The translations under genes were made by a program, and so were the position numbers. Of a stretch of DNA of 19,369 bases, positions 1 to 8,477 are shown piece by piece (within the stretch, counting starts at the first letter, position 1; each line of letters opens with the position of its first letter). Source of the stretch: a virus; the IMG/VR virus record IMGVR_UViG_3300022538_001114, one strand, 5' to 3'. The notes below the pieces were generated by a model. That model saw only the letters and a list, made by a program, of their open reading frames with translations. It did no database searches and was not told where the DNA came from.

Positions 1-193
1 ATGTCTCTCCTTCCATATTTGCCATTATAAATCTAAGATTTCTGGTTACTTTTTTCAGCTCTGTAATATCAGTTAGTGCGGATATGGAGTATTCAAATTT
101 TCCGTCTTCATCTTTTTCAGAATAAGCACTTAATTGAATGTCAATTTTTTTGCCATTCTTTTTGATGAATTGATAATAGACATCTTTAATTTT
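1..193 (-). other. Open continuation of the PAS-domain reading frame downstream of the TGA at 194-196; it runs off the left edge of the window.
   Basis: The reverse complement of 1-196 read in the frame of ORF 194..1165 gives TGA then KIKDVYYQFIKKNGKKIDIQLSAYSEKDEDGKFEYSISALTDITELKKVTRNLRFIMANMEGET with no further stop. This is the canonical C-terminal half of a PAS fold (..kdG..f..s.s...DITErK). Confidence 0.5.
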
Positions 194-1165
194 TCAATCC
201 TTGAAAAATTTTGGAAGCGAAACGTTTTTTGCATACGCAGCAGATTGTTTTGAGAGAAATTTTGTTAGATGATGACCAATAACCTCATCACGATCATAAC
301 CCATTACTTCTAACCAGTAATTTGAAGCATTTACAATATTTCCATTTTCATCAATACTATGAATCATTGATAAAGTGTTATTATATAATGAATCATATCG
401 AGCTTCAGCTATTTCTCTTTTTTGTTTTGCTATCTTTTCCGCTGTTACATCATAAGAACGAATAACTACTAAGATTTGTTTATCTTTATCTGGGTTTTTG
501 GAGTTTAATATAATAGTGGAGAAGTCGCTTCTAAACCATCTATCACCTAAGGTTTTGATTTGATCTTCTGACCATCTAAAAACATTATATTTTACAACTT
601 CCTTGATTTTTTTCTTCCACTTATCTGCCACTTTTCCATTAATAAAACTCTTAACAAAACTATAAAAGGGTTCACCTTCTATATCCTTTACTTTTTTATT
701 AAAAATTTTGGCACCGGTTTCATTGATTAATTTAATTTTATGTTCTTCAACAGGATTAACAATCATAAGAACCCCGTAAGGTTGATTAACTAAACCGGTA
801 CTTATGGAATCGCTTTCTTCATAGTCAGTTCTTAACTTTATCCTTCTTAAACCAATACTTATTTTTAAGGATATAGTATCAATTAACTCTTTCTCTATGT
901 CTGAGTTTTTGTAATTTGGATCTAAGATTTCTAATTCTCCGACTACTTTTTTGTCTAATTCTATTGGAACAGAAGCAGTTATAGAAGTTTCAATAAAATT
1001 ATCTGACATAAAAGTTTTGTCTCCTATAGTAATTTTACTATAGCATTTATTTCCAATTTCTTCTTTCCATATAGACGAAATTTCTTCAATTATTTTAGGA
1101 AAAATATCATTTAAGTTTTTTTCTATGTCAAAAATGTTACATATTTTGCATGGTATTTTAAGCAT
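194..1165 (-). CDS. GAF-PAS-PAS sensor-domain protein. The ORF ends at an in-frame TGA located in the middle of the second PAS domain.
   Basis: 323 aa. The N-terminal ~110 aa are GAF-like. The first PAS ends with the DVTAEKIAKQ motif. A second PAS begins at SMIHSIDENGNIVNASNYWLEVMGYDRDEVIGHHL. SD AAAAGGAGAAG lies upstream of the ATG at 1165. Stop TGA at 194-196. Confidence 0.65.
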   Translation of the reverse strand: MLKIPCKICNIFDIEKNLNDIFPKIIEEISSIWKEEIGNKCYSKITIGDKTFMSDNFIETSITASVPIELDKKVVGELEILDPNYKNSDIEKELIDTISLKISIGLRRIKLRTDYEESDSISTGLVNQPYGVLMIVNPVEEHKIKLINETGAKIFNKKVKDIEGEPFYSFVKSFINGKVADKWKKKIKEVVKYNVFRWSEDQIKTLGDRWFRSDFSTIILNSKNPDKDKQILVVIRSYDVTAEKIAKQKREIAEARYDSLYNNTLSMIHSIDENGNIVNASNYWLEVMGYDRDEVIGHHLTKFLSKQSAAYAKNVSLPKFFKD

Positions 1166-1241
1166 TTTTACTTCTCCTTTTTATTTTTATTTAGTACAAA
1201 CACCCCCTTATTATCACTAATTAATATATATAGTAATAAGA

Positions 1242-1281
1242 ACAAAAAAAGAATGGGTATAGTTAAATACCCATTCTTTTA
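1242..1281 (-). terminator. Rho-independent terminator with a 12-bp stem plus a U-run on the minus strand and an A-run on the plus strand, so it could act bidirectionally.
   Basis: Perfect inverted repeat AAGAATGGGTAT (1249-1260) / ATACCCATTCTT (1267-1278) with loop AGTTAA. On the minus-strand RNA the stem starts right after the TAA of ORF 1279..2016 and is followed by UUUUUUUGUUCUU. Confidence 0.65.
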
Positions 1282-2016
1282 TATTACATAATTAACACAT
1301 TTTTCAAGAACATCAACCACTTTATTAAGATCAAGATTATCATCAGAATCTCTAACTCCGGTTTCCATATCAATCCAACATATTCCTTTTCCCATATTAT
1401 CTAATACATCAAGGAGAGTTTGAACATTATCTGGATTTATTCCTCCAGCGTATCCACAAAAGAAACCTCTTATTGGTACTGGTGGTGGTTCATCAAATGT
1501 ATATAGTCCTTTACCTCCAGATGAATCAAATAAAATATGTTGTCTTATTCCATAGTGAGTTAGATCCATCCATAATATATCTTTATTACCTTTATGGTAC
1601 TGAGTTATAAAAGAAACACCTGGATAATGGAAAAGAGTTGTAGTAAGATTTTTTGTGAAAACTTCTGCATTATATTTGGATTTACCTATATTGGAGTTTA
1701 TTTGAATTCTACAATTTACTCCACGTTCCTTTAAAAAAACTTCTGGATAAAATGCCCAATCATCGGGTTCTCTATCACCAATTAACATTTTACGAACTAT
1801 TTCTCCACATAGGTGAGCTGAAACGTTCATATTTTCTGATCTTTTATTAGAAATGGTTTCTATCCATTTTATTGAAGGAAATCTTGGTTGTCCTGATTTA
1901 GTTGATGATATTAAAATTCCCCATTCTACAAAAGGAAAGTCTTCTGATATTCTAGTAAGATATTTTATATCAATTTTATCATCAGCTCCAGTTATTGTAA
2001 CGTACTTAAGTTTCAT
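1279..2016 (-). CDS. Phosphoribosylanthranilate isomerase (TrpF)-like TIM-barrel protein.
   Basis: 245 aa. The C-terminal half carries the TrpF phosphate-binding signatures: FDSSGGKGLYTFD (compare DSGGGTGxxFDW) and GYAGGINPDNVQTLLDV (compare LSGGLNPENV). A C-terminal acidic helix is present. SD AAAAGGAG lies upstream. Confidence 0.6.
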   Translation of the reverse strand: MKLKYVTITGADDKIDIKYLTRISEDFPFVEWGILISSTKSGQPRFPSIKWIETISNKRSENMNVSAHLCGEIVRKMLIGDREPDDWAFYPEVFLKERGVNCRIQINSNIGKSKYNAEVFTKNLTTTLFHYPGVSFITQYHKGNKDILWMDLTHYGIRQHILFDSSGGKGLYTFDEPPPVPIRGFFCGYAGGINPDNVQTLLDVLDNMGKGICWIDMETGVRDSDDNLDLNKVVDVLEKCVNYVI

Positions 2017-2035
2017 TTCTTAGCTAACTCCTTTT

Positions 2036-2287
2036 CTAATTGTTTTTTGAAGTAGTAGGTTCATCTGGACGATTATGACAGAAATGACATTTAGGATCAG
2101 AACAAGTAGGTTCTAACCAAATCCAACACATTTTACAATAATAACAATCATAATCTTCGTTTATAATTCCTTTTGTCCCACATTCTTTACAATGAGGAAC
2201 GTGTCCTATAACTGGATGTCCTCTATCACTTTTCATTTTTATATCCAATTTTTGGAGGATTTCTAGGAAACATTTTAGGATCTCCAC
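2036..2287 (-). CDS. Cys/His-rich zinc-finger-like small protein.
   Basis: The sequence contains the pattern HCKECG...CYYCKMC...CSDPKCHFCH. The annotated start at 2287 is GTG and overlaps the upstream ORF by 62 nt; an internal ATG at 2236 (MKSDRG...) is a likelier start. Stop TAG at 2036. Confidence 0.4.
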   Translation of the reverse strand: MEILKCFLEILQKLDIKMKSDRGHPVIGHVPHCKECGTKGIINEDYDCYYCKMCWIWLEPTCSDPKCHFCHNRPDEPTTSKNN

Positions 2288-2654
2288 CCAACTCTTTTAT
2301 ACTTTTCAATAATAATTTATAGTTTTCTTCAAGTCTTCCTCCAAATCTTCTTATAAATTCTCCTAAAGTGGTTTCTCTTTTTGGAGAATAGTCTTTAATA
2401 TATTTAATAGTAAAATCTAAAAAGTTAATTGGAATAATAGATATCGTCGAATCTGTATATTTTGAAATATCTATTCTTACACTATCAGTTACTATATTTT
2501 CAATATAATGAACACCCTCTATTCCAGTAACAATAATTCCAAGAGGTAATTCTATAAAAGCAAGTTCTATTTCAATATGAGATCGATATTTATTTTCGGT
2601 TTGTTCTTTTATTAAAGTATTAATATCATAAACATTTATTTTTTGTATGTCCAT
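2226..2654 (-). CDS. Hypothetical protein of 142 aa.
   Basis: Complete ORF co-directional with its neighbours in a dense array. No recognisable motifs. Confidence 0.45.
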   Translation of the reverse strand: MDIQKINVYDINTLIKEQTENKYRSHIEIELAFIELPLGIIVTGIEGVHYIENIVTDSVRIDISKYTDSTISIIPINFLDFTIKYIKDYSPKRETTLGEFIRRFGGRLEENYKLLLKSIKELGGDPKMFPRNPPKIGYKNEK

Positions 2655-2663
2655 GATGATTTC

Positions 2664-2918
2664 TTAATGGAGTGTTGGTCCTTTATTTTCTTTGGTTAAT
2701 AATGGATTTGCTTCTATATTAAAATAATCTTCGTTTTGCATTTTTATAATTAAGTCTCTTATTTCAATTAAAAATTCTTGTGATCTTCCATCTCTAACTG
2801 CAGCAGATAATGCAATAGCAAACCCACATATAGCAGCTCTAAACATCGAATCTAATTTAAACAATTCTTTAATTGATTCAAACATTATTTTTTCATTTTC
2901 AGTCATTTCTATTTCCAT
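2664..2918 (-). CDS. Hypothetical protein of 84 aa.
   Basis: Its ATG overlaps the ligase stop (TAATG), which suggests translational coupling. No recognisable motifs. Confidence 0.45.
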   Translation of the reverse strand: MEIEMTENEKIMFESIKELFKLDSMFRAAICGFAIALSAAVRDGRSQEFLIEIRDLIIKMQNEDYFNIEANPLLTKENKGPTLH

Positions 2919-4024
2919 TATTCATAATCCCTTATAGCTAATCCAATAGGTTGACTTGGAATTCCACTATCAGTAAATTCTGGATATCTGACAGTTAACA
3001 TTTTACCAATATCATTTTCAAGTTCGAGATACCATTTCTGTCTATCTTCTAATGATCCTTTTGGGCTAACATCGAATTCAAGACCACTCTCAGTAATACA
3101 AGTATATACGACACAACCTTCATGGGTTCCGGTTGCTTGTTTTCCACCAATTATTTTAAATTCTGAATCTTCAAATTCTTTAACTTTTTCAAGATCATCT
3201 GAATTATATTGAAACATATAAATTCCATTTTTATTTTTTAACATTCCACCTTCGAAACCATTACTAATAAAAACATCATGAGCTCTTTTAACTTCATCTC
3301 TATTATTAACTATTATTGTTGGTGTAACTATTATTGGACTAAATATGTTATCATGAATATTTTCTGTTATCCATTCCCATCTTTCTTCAAAAGTTGGTCC
3401 AACCCATGCGATATCATAAACCCAAAATTGAAGTCTATGAGCATCTTCTTTTAAGTCTTTTGTATAGGAACCAATTTTTTGAAGACTCCAATCAGGATGA
3501 AATAGTTCTCCATGTAGTGGAGCTGGAGGGGCAATGTCTTGAATATATGGGTTAAGATGTTGTAATGTATGAAATGTTTTTCCACCTCTTGAATGATGTA
3601 TTACCATATGAGGGTTACCAGGTATATCTTCAGTTAAATCACATATACCATTTAATTTAGGTTGCATGAAGCAAGGAAAAATTATTTTTCCTTTACCCAT
3701 ACCTTTTGCTAACATTGGTAACATAACATTTGGAAGGTAATTATTTGGATCTGGAATTTCTTCTTCATAATTTTTATCTTTTTTACTATTCCATTTAGAT
3801 TGAGCTTGAGATAATGCTTGGATAAATGGAGTAGTCTCATTTGACTTACCAATATTTTTTCCTTTAGTAATTGTCTTGGGTCGATCTACAATCTTTCCAT
3901 CTATGTAACCTGATTCAGTATGGATAGTAGCAGAACCATTTTCATTCTGTTCTACCCAAGTAGTCCATTGTTTGATCTTTTCTGTTTTTGCTAAAGCATA
4001 TAACGTTGGAAATTCTTTTTTCAT
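2918..4024 (-). CDS. ATP-dependent DNA ligase (nucleotidyltransferase domain plus C-terminal OB domain).
   Basis: 368 aa. Motif I-like QPKLNGI (Kx[DN]G). Motif IV LHGELF. Motif V EGGMLKNKNGIY. The C-terminal OB tail LTVRYPEFTDSGIPSQPIGLAIRDYE resembles the ligase motif VI region. SD GAGGAG lies 9 nt upstream. Confidence 0.7.
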   Translation of the reverse strand: MKKEFPTLYALAKTEKIKQWTTWVEQNENGSATIHTESGYIDGKIVDRPKTITKGKNIGKSNETTPFIQALSQAQSKWNSKKDKNYEEEIPDPNNYLPNVMLPMLAKGMGKGKIIFPCFMQPKLNGICDLTEDIPGNPHMVIHHSRGGKTFHTLQHLNPYIQDIAPPAPLHGELFHPDWSLQKIGSYTKDLKEDAHRLQFWVYDIAWVGPTFEERWEWITENIHDNIFSPIIVTPTIIVNNRDEVKRAHDVFISNGFEGGMLKNKNGIYMFQYNSDDLEKVKEFEDSEFKIIGGKQATGTHEGCVVYTCITESGLEFDVSPKGSLEDRQKWYLELENDIGKMLTVRYPEFTDSGIPSQPIGLAIRDYE

Positions 4025-4030
4025 TCTAAC

Positions 4031-4225
4031 TTACTCCTCTTCTAAAAATTTAAGACGTGGTGTATTTAAATTTGGATCAAGATTATCTAAAACTTTATCA
4101 TATTCTATTTTACAAGTAGCTCCCATATCTTGAGCATGAGTATCCATAAGTGAAATACCATTTTTACATTTCTCACATTCTAAACTATGTGGCCAAGTAT
4201 ATATTATTGTTGTATATTTTCCCAT
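4031..4225 (-). CDS. Small zinc-ribbon-like protein of 64 aa.
   Basis: Contains CEKCKNG and a later C/H pattern. SD AGGA upstream. Stop TAA. Confidence 0.45.
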   Translation of the reverse strand: MGKYTTIIYTWPHSLECEKCKNGISLMDTHAQDMGATCKIEYDKVLDNLDPNLNTPRLKFLEEE

Positions 4226-4247
4226 AATTATTTTATCCTATAAATAT

Positions 4248-4270
4248 GGGTGGGGAATAAATCCCCACCC
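4248..4270 (-). promoter_or_regulatory. GC-rich intercistronic hairpin, member 1 of the GGTGGG/CCCACC family.
   Basis: GGGTGGGGA-ATAAA-TCCCCACCC, a perfect 9-bp stem. It sits between the stop of a 48-aa ORF (4283) and the start of ORF 4031..4225. Confidence 0.5.
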
Positions 4271-4282
4271 TTAAATAGTTTA

Positions 4283-4429
4283 TTAAGGTTCATATTTTTC
4301 AATAAATTCATTTAAAATAGATTCTCGTTCTTTTTGAGTTTTTGCTTTTTTTATCTTATTTAGGTAATACTCAAAAGCTCTATCTAAATCTTTTTCAAGA
4401 ACCCTAAAGAATTTTTTTACTAGATCCAT
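4283..4429 (-). CDS. 48-aa small ORF (MDLVKKFFRVLEKDLDRAFEYYLNKIKKAKTQKERESILNEFIEKYEP), absent from the ORF track because it is under 60 aa.
   Basis: ATG at 4429 preceded by the SD TTGAGGT with 5-nt spacing. Stop TAA at 4283-4285. It fills an otherwise unexplained 219-bp gap in a tightly packed array. Confidence 0.35.
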   Translation of the reverse strand: MDLVKKFFRVLEKDLDRAFEYYLNKIKKAKTQKERESILNEFIEKYEP

Positions 4430-4444
4430 AATAACCTCAATTTG

Positions 4445-5569
4445 TTAAGGCTGATAATGTTCTGAAACTCTTTCCGATTTAGACCATGATCTCTTTCGGA
4501 TAGAAACAGCAGTTTCACCAACACCAGGTTGAAATAGAACTAAGCGTTCCCATTTTGATCTTTTACCCTTTGGGACATAATCCTTTTCCCACTTAACTCC
4601 TTTTAACCAAGATGGAAGTCTATCGGGAGAATTATAATGAGAAAGCTCAGTTACCCTGGTCATAAATCGAAGTCTTTCAATAGATTTACCATAATCACTA
4701 TATAGATTACTTACTAATACCAAACTATCTTGACTACTTTCATAATCACGATAAGTTGTTTTCGAGTAGTCAGGAAAATCAATTTCAACTTCAAACGAAT
4801 CAACTTGAATTTGTTTTCCAGCGTCTATTTCAGAATCAGTATAAGTTAATGGAGTCTTTTTCCAAGTTGGTGGATAACTTATTCCTTCGGTAAGCATTCT
4901 TTTCTTTACTTTGTTTAGATATGCTCTTTCTTCAGTCAATCGAGCAATCAAGAGTTTACTAATTATGTAATGATGACCAAAGAATGAAGTCCATCTATTC
5001 GGGTGTACAAAATCTCTGAAGATAACCGTATTCCCAGTCCATAGATTATTTTCGGTAAGAAATCTGTTTTCCTTTCTGGTTGGAACAAATTCAATTTTTT
5101 GCCACCCATTATACCAGGTTCCATCGAAGTCGGTCAATGAGAGGGTCCTAAAATCTCCAACTTTATCTTCACCTATAACATTTTGATCTATGATTCTTAT
5201 TGAGAACCTGAAGTTGTCTTTGTTTCCAAGAACACCAATGAGTTGACCATTCCGATTAAATTTTGAAATCAATTCCTGATCTTTTTTAAATCTGGTTTGG
5301 CGAAATGATTTGTAGTGTGGGACATTTATAATCGAGTCTCTTCCCAATAGTGCATAGAGAAAACACGCAAGATCAAGATTCACCCCTTGAAAAATTCCGT
5401 TTTCACTATAAACACGACCTGGTTTTCTTGTCATCAGATCATAATTCCAATAACCTTGAATTTCATTAATAGCGAATGATAAGTAAGTACTTTTATTAAA
5501 AATATCTTGAATCATTGGATGAACTGGAAGCGATTTAATTGTTTGTGCTATGTGCTTTTTTTCTGTCAT
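4445..5569 (-). CDS. Hypothetical protein of 374 aa.
   Basis: Long clean ORF with SD AGGAGA 7 nt upstream of the ATG. I cannot assign a family from the sequence. Confidence 0.55.
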   Translation of the reverse strand: MTEKKHIAQTIKSLPVHPMIQDIFNKSTYLSFAINEIQGYWNYDLMTRKPGRVYSENGIFQGVNLDLACFLYALLGRDSIINVPHYKSFRQTRFKKDQELISKFNRNGQLIGVLGNKDNFRFSIRIIDQNVIGEDKVGDFRTLSLTDFDGTWYNGWQKIEFVPTRKENRFLTENNLWTGNTVIFRDFVHPNRWTSFFGHHYIISKLLIARLTEERAYLNKVKKRMLTEGISYPPTWKKTPLTYTDSEIDAGKQIQVDSFEVEIDFPDYSKTTYRDYESSQDSLVLVSNLYSDYGKSIERLRFMTRVTELSHYNSPDRLPSWLKGVKWEKDYVPKGKRSKWERLVLFQPGVGETAVSIRKRSWSKSERVSEHYQP

Positions 5570-5640
5570 GATTTTTTCTCCTGTAATTTAATTGTTTGTG
5601 ATATGTGCTTTTTTTCTGTCATGATTTTTTCTCCTGTAAT
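5535..5640 (-). repeat. Perfect 53-bp tandem duplication (2 copies, 1 mismatch) covering the SD, ATG and first ~11 codons of ORF 4445..5569.
   Basis: Copy 1 at 5535-5587 and copy 2 at 5588-5640: ttaattgtttgtg[c/a]tatgtgctttttttctgtcatgattttttctcctgtaat. Confidence 0.85.
5566..5622 (-). CDS. 18-codon upstream ORF (MTEKKHISQTIKLQEKKS) created by the duplication. Its TGA overlaps the main ATG as ATGA.
   Basis: It has its own copy of the SD ACAGGAGAAAAAATC ATG. The stop at 5566-5568 overlaps the ATG at 5567-5569 of the 374-aa ORF. Confidence 0.3.
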   Translation of the reverse strand: MTEKKHISQTIKLQEKKS

Positions 5641-5850
5641 TTAATTTATGTTTTTAACTTCTATTTTTGTGGCAGTTAACTGAATTATCAGTTCAACTTT
5701 TTCACCATTATCTAATTCAATTTTAAAACAAGCTTCTGGAGGACCTTCAATTTCTTCTATTTTTTTATATTTTTCTAACCACTTGTTTCCATTATAACCA
5801 CATTCTTTAAACACTTCTTCAACGAGATCATGATCAACATCCATTGACAT
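5641..5850 (-). CDS. Hypothetical protein of 69 aa.
   Basis: SD AAGGAAAGGAG upstream of the ATG. Stop TAA. Confidence 0.4.
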   Translation of the reverse strand: MSMDVDHDLVEEVFKECGYNGNKWLEKYKKIEEIEGPPEACFKIELDNGEKVELIIQLTATKIEVKNIN

Positions 5851-5914
5851 AAAGACTCCTTTCCTTAAAATTATTAGAACGAAAATGTTTATAAAGTTAA
5901 GTAATTAATATTTA

Positions 5915-5953
5915 TAATAAAAAAAGATTTATAATTTTCTATAAAATTATAAA
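5915..5953 (-). terminator. Candidate weak intrinsic terminator (A/U-only stem plus U-run) downstream of the kinase gene.
   Basis: Inverted repeat TTTATAATTTT-ctat-AAAATTATAAA (5928-5953), followed on the minus strand by UCUUUUUUUAUU. The stem is entirely A/T and therefore weak. Confidence 0.3.
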
Positions 5954-5963
5954 CCTTTTTGTC

Positions 5964-7655
5964 TTACTTCTTTTTGATGATGGAATATAGTTTTTTGTTT
6001 TCATAAAATAATACATTAAGACCATCATTGCATAATTTCATTGTTGTGTTAATATCAGGATCAGTAATTTTATCAATCTCCGGTCTAGCAGGATCTCGTC
6101 TAAAAATTTCTATTGTACCGTCTGATAATATGGTTATAACAATTCCATTGGCTAATGATACAAAATTTATATCTTGTAAATCAACATCTTCAATTTTTCT
6201 ACAATGATATTTTTTATATAATTCATCAAAACGGATTATAAATAGATCGTAAATATTACCTTTAAGACCAGTTAGTATGACAACTCCATTTTCATGTTTA
6301 GCATTTATAATTTTATAACCATTAATCTCAGGAATTTCCATTTCAAAATATGATGTGTCTTCTCCAGCTTTTGGTACTGGAATTACAAAATATGGTTTTC
6401 CCATTATAAGTTGATAAATTATTCCATCAAATATTTCACTAGTAGTAGGCATGATATTCCACGATGAATTAACAAATGCCACAATTTTGTTTCTCATATC
6501 AAGAAAACCAATCTCATCTAAATCCGATCCACTGGTTATAAATAAAGAATTATCTACTACCATCATGTTATTAGCACTAAGAATTTGATATGATAAACTC
6601 TTATTTTTATCTAAACATTTTAGTTTAAGACTTTTATCCTCTATCTTAGCTAAAATCAGATTTAAATCTAAATCTGTAATAAGGAGATCAACTCCAGTAT
6701 TTACCTTATAGTGGATATTATCAATCCATATTCCACTTTTTGTCCTGACCACTTTTCTTCCAAATATATTTTTATGAGAAACTATATAATCATCATATTC
6801 CTTGGTATAAGTAATTTCAAAACTATCTGTATTTGTAATAACTCTAATTGTTACTGGAATAATAGTAACAGTTCCAGGTAGAAGAGGTGGCGTAGATCTT
6901 TTACCCTTTTCGAAGAGATCTTTATACCATTCTTTATAATGAGTTGGTATTAAATCAAAACCTCTTACTGATCTAGGTAGTCTTACATCTGAATTGAAAA
7001 TAGAAACATGATCTTTCATTCTTCCCTTAATATCTGCTCTATTATATTTATTATGACTTCCTCTAAACGGATGTATTCCAAGGAAAAGGTAACAGGTAAT
7101 AATGGCGAATGAAAACCAATCGGTTAAAGTGTTAAAGGTATTGGATGTCCAATCTCTCACGTTCGGATTTATTGCTGTAGCAGGAAAGTTTGGGGTTTCC
7201 CAAGCATTTATATCAATAAATCCAGGAGTTATCCAATCCCAATTTACGATGATATTCATATCGTTAATGTCGACTAATAAGAATCCCCTTTCATGAACTT
7301 TTTGAATAAAACTTTTTATATTTTCAACAAGATCTACTGAATGGGAATTACTTATTCCATTATCATTTCTAAATCCAGTTGTATAAAGTTTTATTAATGG
7401 ATCTCCAATAGCTTTATTCATAGTAAAACCAATAGGTTTCTTTTTCCTATTTAGAATAAGATCTTTTGGGACAAATATATTAGAAATTTTCAAACTTTGT
7501 AGCTCCTGAATTTTTTCTGGTGGAATCATATGTTTTGGATCATGGAATATTTTATAAACCGTATTTCCTTTTATCCAAACTTTAGCTTCTCCACCTTGTT
7601 TAAAATCAGAGGGATCCACGGTTACAGGTTTTTTACCTTGAATTAAAATTTGCAT
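5964..7655 (-). CDS. Ser/Thr protein kinase (eukaryotic-like kinase fold) with a ~300-aa beta-rich C-terminal domain.
   Basis: 563 aa. Gly-rich loop region FKQGGEAKVWIKGNTVYKIF. Catalytic-loop-like LLVDINDMNIIVN (D..N). DFG-equivalent GFIDINAW. TDWFSFAIITCYLFLGIHPF resembles subdomain IX. The SD AAGGAGGG is embedded in the 3' end of the PP2C gene, and the stop and start are adjacent (TAAATG). Confidence 0.65.
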   Translation of the reverse strand: MQILIQGKKPVTVDPSDFKQGGEAKVWIKGNTVYKIFHDPKHMIPPEKIQELQSLKISNIFVPKDLILNRKKKPIGFTMNKAIGDPLIKLYTTGFRNDNGISNSHSVDLVENIKSFIQKVHERGFLLVDINDMNIIVNWDWITPGFIDINAWETPNFPATAINPNVRDWTSNTFNTLTDWFSFAIITCYLFLGIHPFRGSHNKYNRADIKGRMKDHVSIFNSDVRLPRSVRGFDLIPTHYKEWYKDLFEKGKRSTPPLLPGTVTIIPVTIRVITNTDSFEITYTKEYDDYIVSHKNIFGRKVVRTKSGIWIDNIHYKVNTGVDLLITDLDLNLILAKIEDKSLKLKCLDKNKSLSYQILSANNMMVVDNSLFITSGSDLDEIGFLDMRNKIVAFVNSSWNIMPTTSEIFDGIIYQLIMGKPYFVIPVPKAGEDTSYFEMEIPEINGYKIINAKHENGVVILTGLKGNIYDLFIIRFDELYKKYHCRKIEDVDLQDINFVSLANGIVITILSDGTIEIFRRDPARPEIDKITDPDINTTMKLCNDGLNVLFYENKKLYSIIKKK

Positions 7656-8429
7656 TTATCCCTCCTTTTTTATAAGAAATGCACCAATTGAAATATCGTC
7701 GAAATGAAAATTTTTATCATTTTCATATGTTGATATAAACCTTATCATTCTTCTTTGAAGAAATGATCCATTAGTAGTTTTGAAACTAACACATTCTTTT
7801 ACTACTTCTTTTATATTAGTTCCTGGATTAAAAGATCCTATTCCATCAGAGGCGATTGCTATTGTTTTAAATAGATAAACAGGAAAGTTCCATATATTAG
7901 GATCACTATAATCAGATTCTAAATCAGAACCAATAAAGGTTTTTACTTTTTTTTTAATTTCTTTTTTTCTGTATGATTCTAGATTATCTGGAGATAGATT
8001 ATATGATAAGTAAAATGGATAACTATCAGTAAATGAAACTTCACAATATGAAATTCCTCCATCATTATTTTCAAGGATAATATAACCATCACCATACATA
8101 TGAACACAAATATAATTATTATGGTAATATGAGATAATTAGAGTTGATGATAAACATGTTGTATCAATTTCTAAAACCCTAGTCATGATTTCGGCGTTAG
8201 ATATAATATTAAAACCCATCTTGTTATGATCAAGTTTTCCAAGACTATTTTTCCAAGTTTTTATATATTTTTCTGCTGATAAACATAACAATCTAGCGCC
8301 AATATCTGTATTTTTAGCTCCAGTACTTCCATCTGCTAAGATTATATAGTCATAACCTTTAATTATATAATCTTCACATATGAAATGACTTTTTCCAATT
8401 TTAGTAAATATATCATTTGTTATTAACAT
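7656..8429 (-). CDS. PP2C-family Ser/Thr protein phosphatase.
   Basis: 257 aa. ILADGSTGAKNTDIGARL (ADGxGG-type metal motif), IAIASDGIGSF (second DG motif) and C-terminal DDISIGAF (compare DDiTvvvv). Confidence 0.7.
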   Translation of the reverse strand: MLITNDIFTKIGKSHFICEDYIIKGYDYIILADGSTGAKNTDIGARLLCLSAEKYIKTWKNSLGKLDHNKMGFNIISNAEIMTRVLEIDTTCLSSTLIISYYHNNYICVHMYGDGYIILENNDGGISYCEVSFTDSYPFYLSYNLSPDNLESYRKKEIKKKVKTFIGSDLESDYSDPNIWNFPVYLFKTIAIASDGIGSFNPGTNIKEVVKECVSFKTTNGSFLQRRMIRFISTYENDKNFHFDDISIGAFLIKKEG

Positions 8430-8440
8430 AGATCCCCCAT

Positions 8441-8472
8441 AGGTGGGCTCCCTACTATATGAGAGCCCACCT
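8441..8472 (-). promoter_or_regulatory. GC-rich intercistronic hairpin, member 2 of the GGTGGG/CCCACC family, between the vWA and PP2C genes.
   Basis: AGGTGGGCTC-cctactatatga-GAGCCCACCT, a 10-bp stem with a 12-nt loop, 12 nt upstream of the PP2C ATG. Confidence 0.5.
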
Positions 8473-8477
8473 CCAAA

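Follow-up and report, generated by a model that had tools for sequence, protein, structure and literature searches.

In stop-recoded phages, in which TGA is read as Trp (code 4) or TAG as Gln (code 15), genes contain many in-frame stops, coding density under code 11 is low, and suppressor tRNAs are often present (PMC11210395); the density of such genomes rises from ~78% under code 11 to ~90% under the right code, and code-4 predictions make up ~0.1% of phage genomes (PMC11210395). In the huge-phage study, UAG is the only reassignment reported (PMC7162821). A different layout was described by Liu et al. (2023) in code-11-compatible phages predicted to infect code-25 organisms, which have no in-frame TGA and carry different stops clustered at the ends of their genes (PMC10746230). 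Accessory genes of phages can also carry a nonsense polymorphism or be nascent pseudogenes: one substitution turns a sense codon into a stop, the frame beyond it is intact, and a near-identical genome keeps the sense codon. The locus studied here, an in-frame TGA within a PAS domain at the end of a viral contig, shares these three properties with such polymorphisms, and nothing distinctive sets it apart from them.

The window, by which we mean the whole stretch of DNA that was analysed, is an entire JGI contig of 19,369 nt with ~30% GC and nearly all genes on the minus strand; in the protein database, the 323-aa product of the PAS gene is recorded on that contig alone. The features of the gene are as follows:

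197..1165, minus strand: 323-codon ORF; its N-terminal domain, of unassigned fold, precedes a probable first PAS-like domain, then come a linker helix and the initial half of the second PAS domain (PAS2)

431..793, minus strand: probable first PAS-like sensor domain (residues ~125-245), from library alignments and a weak Diguanyl_cycl_sensor match

59..364, minus strand: PAS2, residues 268-369 of the read-through protein; spans the TGA; Pfam PAS_9

194..196, minus strand: codon 324, an in-frame TGA; the base that varies is window 196, a coding-strand T here and a G in the near-identical contig L004 (GGA, Gly)

2..193, minus strand: same-frame continuation of 64 codons, encoding the second half of PAS2 and a further segment; reaches the contig end

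An earlier reading of this DNA from the sequence alone (the sequence-only reading) held that the ORF ends at TGA while its frame stays open for at least 64 more codons. Retranslation of 2..1165 on the minus strand bears this out: the ORF 194..1165 has 323 codons, followed by TGA at 196..194 and then by 64 sense codons to the window edge, the protein context at the stop being ...SLPKFFKD-stop-KIKDVYYQFIKKNGKKIDIQLSAYSEKDEDGKFEYSISALTDITELKK... The ATG is at 1165, with AAGGAGAAG before it and an RBS-like GGAG upstream. In the two off-frames of the window's genes, stops account for 7.6% and 12.8% of codons; at these rates the chance of 64 stop-free codons is ~0.006 or 0.0002, and we thus do not regard the open continuation as a chance run. 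On the read-through protein with Gly put in at the stop, Pfam PAS_9 (PF13426) matches residues 268-369 over almost its full profile (positions 4-103 of 103, E 1.9e-18, 67 bits against a cut-off of 27), and PAS_4, PAS and PAS_3 match the same span. Since this match spans the stop, a single PAS fold straddles the TGA, and the proposal that the continuation is the missing C-terminal half of the second PAS fold stands. Many PAS proteins found in the library search align over residues ~235-380, and some of the alignments start at ~127-148 and reach ~377; together with a weak Diguanyl_cycl_sensor match at residues 140-174, this points to residues ~125-245 as a probable, not firmly established, first PAS-like domain. 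A single-sequence structure model of the 323-aa product had a mean pLDDT of 36 and was unusable. By analogy with the usual PAS fold, the TGA would fall in a turn or loop before the G-beta strand (KIKDVYYQF), with the H-beta and I-beta strands (KKIDIQLSAY and FEYSISAL) and then a DITE motif following past it.

Two simple origins of the stop were considered and ruled out. A chimeric join at the TGA does not fit, as both the frame and the PAS fold continue exactly across it and L004 matches the window on both sides. An old pseudogene does not fit either, the frame past the TGA being intact and still scoring as PAS; by the same token, the intactness of the 64 downstream codons indicates that the change is recent.

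The comparison that resolves the nature of the codon is with L004, from another JGI metagenome (3300022539, Ga0247426_1003747, 8863 nt), which was found by exact look-up of the neighbouring 245-aa protein. Its overlap with the window covers 1..8832, and of these 8832 bases only 2 differ, window 196 and 5601. At window 196, L004 reads ...TTCAAGGAT GGA AAAATT..., with GGA (Gly) in place of the TGA of the window, and its PAS gene is called for 398 codons, running past the contig end (...KFFKDGKIKDVYYQF...MEGETFDKLKKINPQ) and extending 10 codons beyond the window's continuation. At the assembly level, other data do therefore carry a sense codon at 194-196, a result of the kind that the sequence-only reading had named as counting against its case. 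The TGA is real in this contig, and it is a single G-to-T change of a GGA Gly codon, not a sign of an unusual genetic code. Two of the options that had been listed for it, a recent nonsense mutation and a sequencing error, both survive the GGA of L004 and the 2 mismatches in 8832 bases.

The other mismatch, at window 5601, is intergenic and lies in copy 1 of a tandem duplication:

5535..5640, minus strand: two tandem copies of a 53-nt unit, which holds an RBS (AGGAG), a start ATG and the opening 11 codons of gene 4445..5569

The window has T at 5601 where L004 has G in both copies; the copies are identical in L004, and those of the window differ at this one base (5601 T, 5548 G). At both sites, then, the coding strand has G in L004 and T in the window, and each time the T of the window contig looks like the derived state. 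The duplication bears on this two-haplotype comparison and not on the PAS gene. Its upstream copy would also start a short ORF of 24 codons.

The residue expected at the stop can be judged from homologous domains as well. An exhaustive HMMER search of 1.84 billion representatives returned thousands of PAS proteins, and PAS2 was realigned to the 150 best. Across the 325 PAS domain alignments that these 150 best matches provide, the column of the TGA holds Gly in 206, Trp in 2 and Cys in none, the next commonest residues after Gly being Gln, Glu, Lys and Arg. GGA is the commonest Gly codon in the window, with 183 uses, and makes up 23% of all window codons that are one substitution away from TGA; because of this large share, it is unremarkable that a TGA should have arisen from GGA.

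Among the 150 best matches of the 1.84 billion representatives, just one other protein has the N-terminal region of the window's PAS protein. This homologue, P0015 (302 aa), is 41% identical to it over residues 6-293 and is encoded on L005 (ENA ERZ24794666, 4046 nt, 2.7x coverage), whose region 1797..3442 contains it in synteny with the window. Its neighbours on L005 are 49-80% identical to window genes, with 80% for the adjacent PRAI-like gene and 74% for the 140-aa gene beside the PRAI-like one; at 41%, the PAS gene is the least conserved of the genes common to L005 and the window, and the sensor gene thus evolves faster than its neighbours. In P0015, ...DYWLEALGYEGDRK is directly followed by a TAA that closes the gene within PAS2, ~29 codons short of the position of the window TGA; behind it lies a separate, unrelated 234-aa gene with its own RBS. 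Because P0015 ends naturally at this point, a ~300-aa protein without most of PAS2 does exist in a related phage, as seen on one low-coverage contig. The C-terminal part of the PAS gene differs between related phages, and this single low-coverage contig hints that it is dispensable or exchangeable.

Other searches returned little. An exact-pattern scan for the 44-nt neighbourhood with any triplet at the TGA gave no match in viral_contigs or metagenome_contigs; a protein-guided search for the locus found none in viral contigs and two distant PAS matches, L002 and L003, in metagenome contigs; a word-indexed protein search returned the query itself and one weak PAS match only; and tblastn against GenBank phages gave two weak matches only. 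Bacterial multi-PAS sensor histidine kinases offer a cellular comparison: PAS2 is 35-49% identical to PAS domains of large cellular sensors, and L002, an unrelated histidine-kinase contig, has a PAS-GAF-histidine-kinase layout after a similar half-PAS. Unlike these kinases, the window gene has an N-terminal stretch of ~120 residues with one relative, P0015, among the 150 best matches, and any output domain would lie beyond the end of every assembly.

With regard to its origin, the best reading of the window is that of a piece of a huge-phage genome, judging from the similarity of one large protein:

13874..16420, minus strand: 848-aa protein in which Pfam (E 2.5e-28) recognises the shoulder and repeat domains of major vault protein

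ORFs of LR756500, LR756501 and LR756503, which are uncultured huge phages of 462 kb and 735 kb, align with 94-96% of this protein at ~41% identity. Genes identified through Pfam include an ATP-dependent DNA ligase, a PP2C-type phosphatase, and kinase-like, isochorismatase/nicotinamidase-like and PRAI-like genes; a further gene encodes a Ros/MucR-like protein. A cluster of signalling type lies on the minus strand at 5964..9242, with a 563-aa protein that weakly matches protein kinases, a 257-aa PP2C phosphatase and a 254-aa protein that is vWA-like by eye; together with the PAS gene, it suggests a phage-encoded signalling module. One gene is split:

10651..12190, minus strand: RtcB gene, interrupted by an insertion at 11392..11653

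The insertion (262 nt, minus strand) has no ORF, shifts the frame and separates two conserved motifs, GTLGGG and NHFIELQ. U is the last base of the upstream exon and G that of the insertion, and the predicted folding of the region is much more stable than that of shuffled sequences (z -4.2). The insertion, which matches no Rfam family, is probably a self-splicing intron, small and group I-like. Between the 83-aa and the nicotinamidase-like genes, ~260 nt at 10131..10394 are devoid of a convincing ORF and GC-richer than the window average; this stretch, also without an Rfam match, may be an unannotated RNA or a regulatory region. Across the whole window no Rfam family reached its gathering threshold, and a search of 10100..11750 at E <= 1 yielded no credible match.

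As regards the TGA itself, the balance of the evidence tips, if not by far, towards a nonsense allele that arose recently by a G-to-T change and segregates among the phages of the population. A single and very recent G-to-T transversion would have turned the GGA Gly codon 324 into an ordinary opal stop, in a PAS-PAS sensor gene of a huge (jumbo-class) phage, and the intact GGA allele is present in a near-clonal copy of that phage. The TGA and GGA alleles would probably share at least one sample, which would make this a segregating nonsense polymorphism. In the TGA haplotype, translation would end before the G-beta strand of PAS2, giving a 323-aa product without the last three beta strands and any output module beyond the contig end; going by the Pfam span and general knowledge of the fold, the truncated product would lack three of the five PAS2 strands and everything beyond. 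We infer that the T is present in real phage genomes and not just in a consensus. That the truncated protein is tolerated is plausible, because the sole ortholog found ends naturally at about the same place.

Further support for two alleles comes from a third assembly. The Logan contig L001 (SRR7716471_3488, 5366 nt) matches window 197..5562 without a single difference, and its last letters are ...TTCAAGGAT, which places its end exactly at the base before the variant. It is unlikely that this contig ends at base 197 by chance, since the look-up would equally have found a contig crossing the TGA. Logan assemblies are built with k = 31, and k-mers seen once are discarded. The other Logan breaks fall at a repeat (5617/5562, the 53-nt duplication) or beside a variant (8745): the contig L006 maps to 8749..5617 and has its own variant at window 8745, 5 nt from its start. 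By this reasoning, the ends at 5617 and 5562 are where 31-mers would lose and then regain uniqueness around the duplication, if both copies carry G. As these other breaks sit at a repeat or next to a variant, breaks in this Logan assembly track real branches of the graph, and the end of L001 suggests that the reads of SRR7716471 disagree at base 196.

A consensus error is a genuine possibility as well, one that we hold to be clearly the less likely of the two. The phage would then have GGA, as the sibling contig L004 does, and the T would have entered the consensus through one or a few reads that were damaged or wrong, at a place of low coverage close to where the contig ends. What speaks against the nonsense allele, and for such an error, is that both differences between the window and L004 are G-to-T on the same strand and both apparently derived in the window contig; a same-strand G-to-T pattern is the hallmark of artefacts from oxidative damage, but AT-biased mutation would fit it as well. 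The contig ends 196 nt from the site, and the three assemblies stop within ~225 nt downstream of it, so that coverage near base 196 may be low. The break in the Logan contig at this base would also be expected from one G read and one T read if, as stated above, singleton k-mers are discarded. On the other hand, the variant that the Logan assembly of SRR7716471 has of its own at 8745 suggests real heterogeneity in the population, and an error present in a minority of reads seldom becomes the assembled consensus except at very low coverage.

The ends of the three assemblies are an observation in their own right: the window contig, L004 and L001 all end within ~225 nt of each other inside the PAS gene (window 1..196; L004 8637..8863), and something downstream, be it a repeat, a variable or mosaic region or a drop in coverage, breaks all three.

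The remaining explanations require that the TGA be read as an amino acid, and they have to be weighed against the use of TGA in the rest of the window. The 25 genes counted, with 5679 sense codons in all, are free of in-frame TGA, TAA and TAG, and the off-frames of these genes hold 75 and 343 TGAs. Gly is encoded by GGN 355 times, and all 83 Trp codons are TGG, which confirms what had been said of Trp; the count of no in-frame TGA in 5679 codons of 25 genes likewise upholds the earlier judgement that a genome-wide code 4 or code 25 is unlikely. Coding density is 88% under code 11. The first stop is TAA in 19 genes, TAG in 1 and, besides the PAS gene, TGA in 3:

2226..2654: gene with a TGA first stop at 2226..2228; TAA or TAG 1 codon later

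10395..10646: gene with a TGA first stop at 10395..10397; TAA or TAG 6 codons later

13494..13814: gene with a TGA first stop at 13494..13496; TAA or TAG 2 codons later

A backup stop within 6 codons is thus present in 3/3 TGA genes and in 6/20 other genes, a difference that is marginal with n = 3 (Fisher, ~0.047). Three TGA among ~24 first stops seems ordinary for an AT-rich genome with the standard code. The view that TGA acts as a genuine stop elsewhere in the window is borne out by these three credible genes and by the lack of in-frame TGA in the others; the ATGA start/stop overlaps that had been cited in its favour occur at none of the gene junctions within the window, and one is present in the related contig L005. 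[quoted passage not shown]

A code-25 host (Gracilibacteria or Absconditabacteria), in which UGA is Gly, would make GGA and TGA synonymous and leave the gene intact, and we regard this as very improbable. In that case the polymorphism would be silent, and the huge phage that carries it would have genes readable under both codes, with TGA in frame nowhere else and each TGA stop backed up by a TAA or TAG. The window does resemble code-25 organisms and the phages compatible with them in having a TGA where Gly belongs (GGA in L004, Gly in 206/325 alignments) and few TGA stops, each with a TAA or TAG nearby (1, 2 or 6 codons on, against 6/20 of the other genes, ~0.047 with n = 3). The match to Gly is nonetheless weak evidence, given that GGA accounts for 23% of the codons one step from TGA, and one TGA against 355 standard Gly codons means that TGA is not in regular use as Gly. 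The backup-stop signal differs from that of code-25-compatible phages in consisting of three genes, and it is equally expected in an AT-rich phage with the standard code. Lastly, the nearest known relatives are huge phages, and the huge-phage study reports UAG reassignment only (PMC7162821).

We give slightly less credence still to recoding at this one codon, whether by an opal suppressor tRNA (code-4-like, Trp), by selenocysteine, or by programmed or leaky UGA read-through with two isoforms. It would account for the frame staying open and the PAS domain continuing, and the TGA is followed by A. A UGA followed by A is relatively leaky in E. coli, and leaky read-through of UGA-A by tRNA-Trp is possible in principle; nothing in the data requires it. 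Against any such recoding, the stop is not conserved even in the nearest relative, L004, and the 41%-identical ortholog ends elsewhere and has no extension, observations that give no support to the programmed read-through or suppression that had been suggested. The column holds Trp in 2/325 and Cys in 0/325 alignments, and the 19.4-kb window has no tRNA of any kind, including none with the UCA anticodon that had been put forward as a sign of suppression. TGA-to-Trp phages do exist, and the window is like the stop-recoded phages in having an in-frame stop inside a conserved domain, but it has one TGA in ~5700 codons, no tRNA, an ancestral residue that is Gly and not Trp, and a code-11 density of 88% that is near the ~90% typical of phages and above the ~78% of recoded ones (PMC11210395). 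Selenocysteine likewise finds no support: like bacterial selenoprotein genes, the window gene has an in-frame UGA with an open frame after it, but unlike them it aligns here with Gly, and never with Cys, in its homologues. No significant SECIS-like hairpin follows the stop either, as the 91 nt that begin with it have a folding energy of -14.2 kcal/mol (z -1.6), which 12/200 shuffles equal. To our knowledge, PAS domains do not occur as selenoproteins. Even when the code-25 host and the recoding of this single codon are taken together, they are improbable.

To return to the nonsense allele that we favour, the finding carries little biological weight: it concerns one base of an accessory sensor gene in an uncultured huge phage, altered either by a nonsense mutation or by an error in the consensus. 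It does offer a word of caution: an in-frame stop in a conserved domain at the end of a contig can mimic recoding, and in this case one near-identical contig out of another sample sufficed to resolve it. Should the allele prove real and segregating, it would illustrate on a small scale that a host-like PAS sensor gene is still decaying in a huge phage, or that its truncation is tolerated there, a picture that fits the naturally short ortholog in a related phage.
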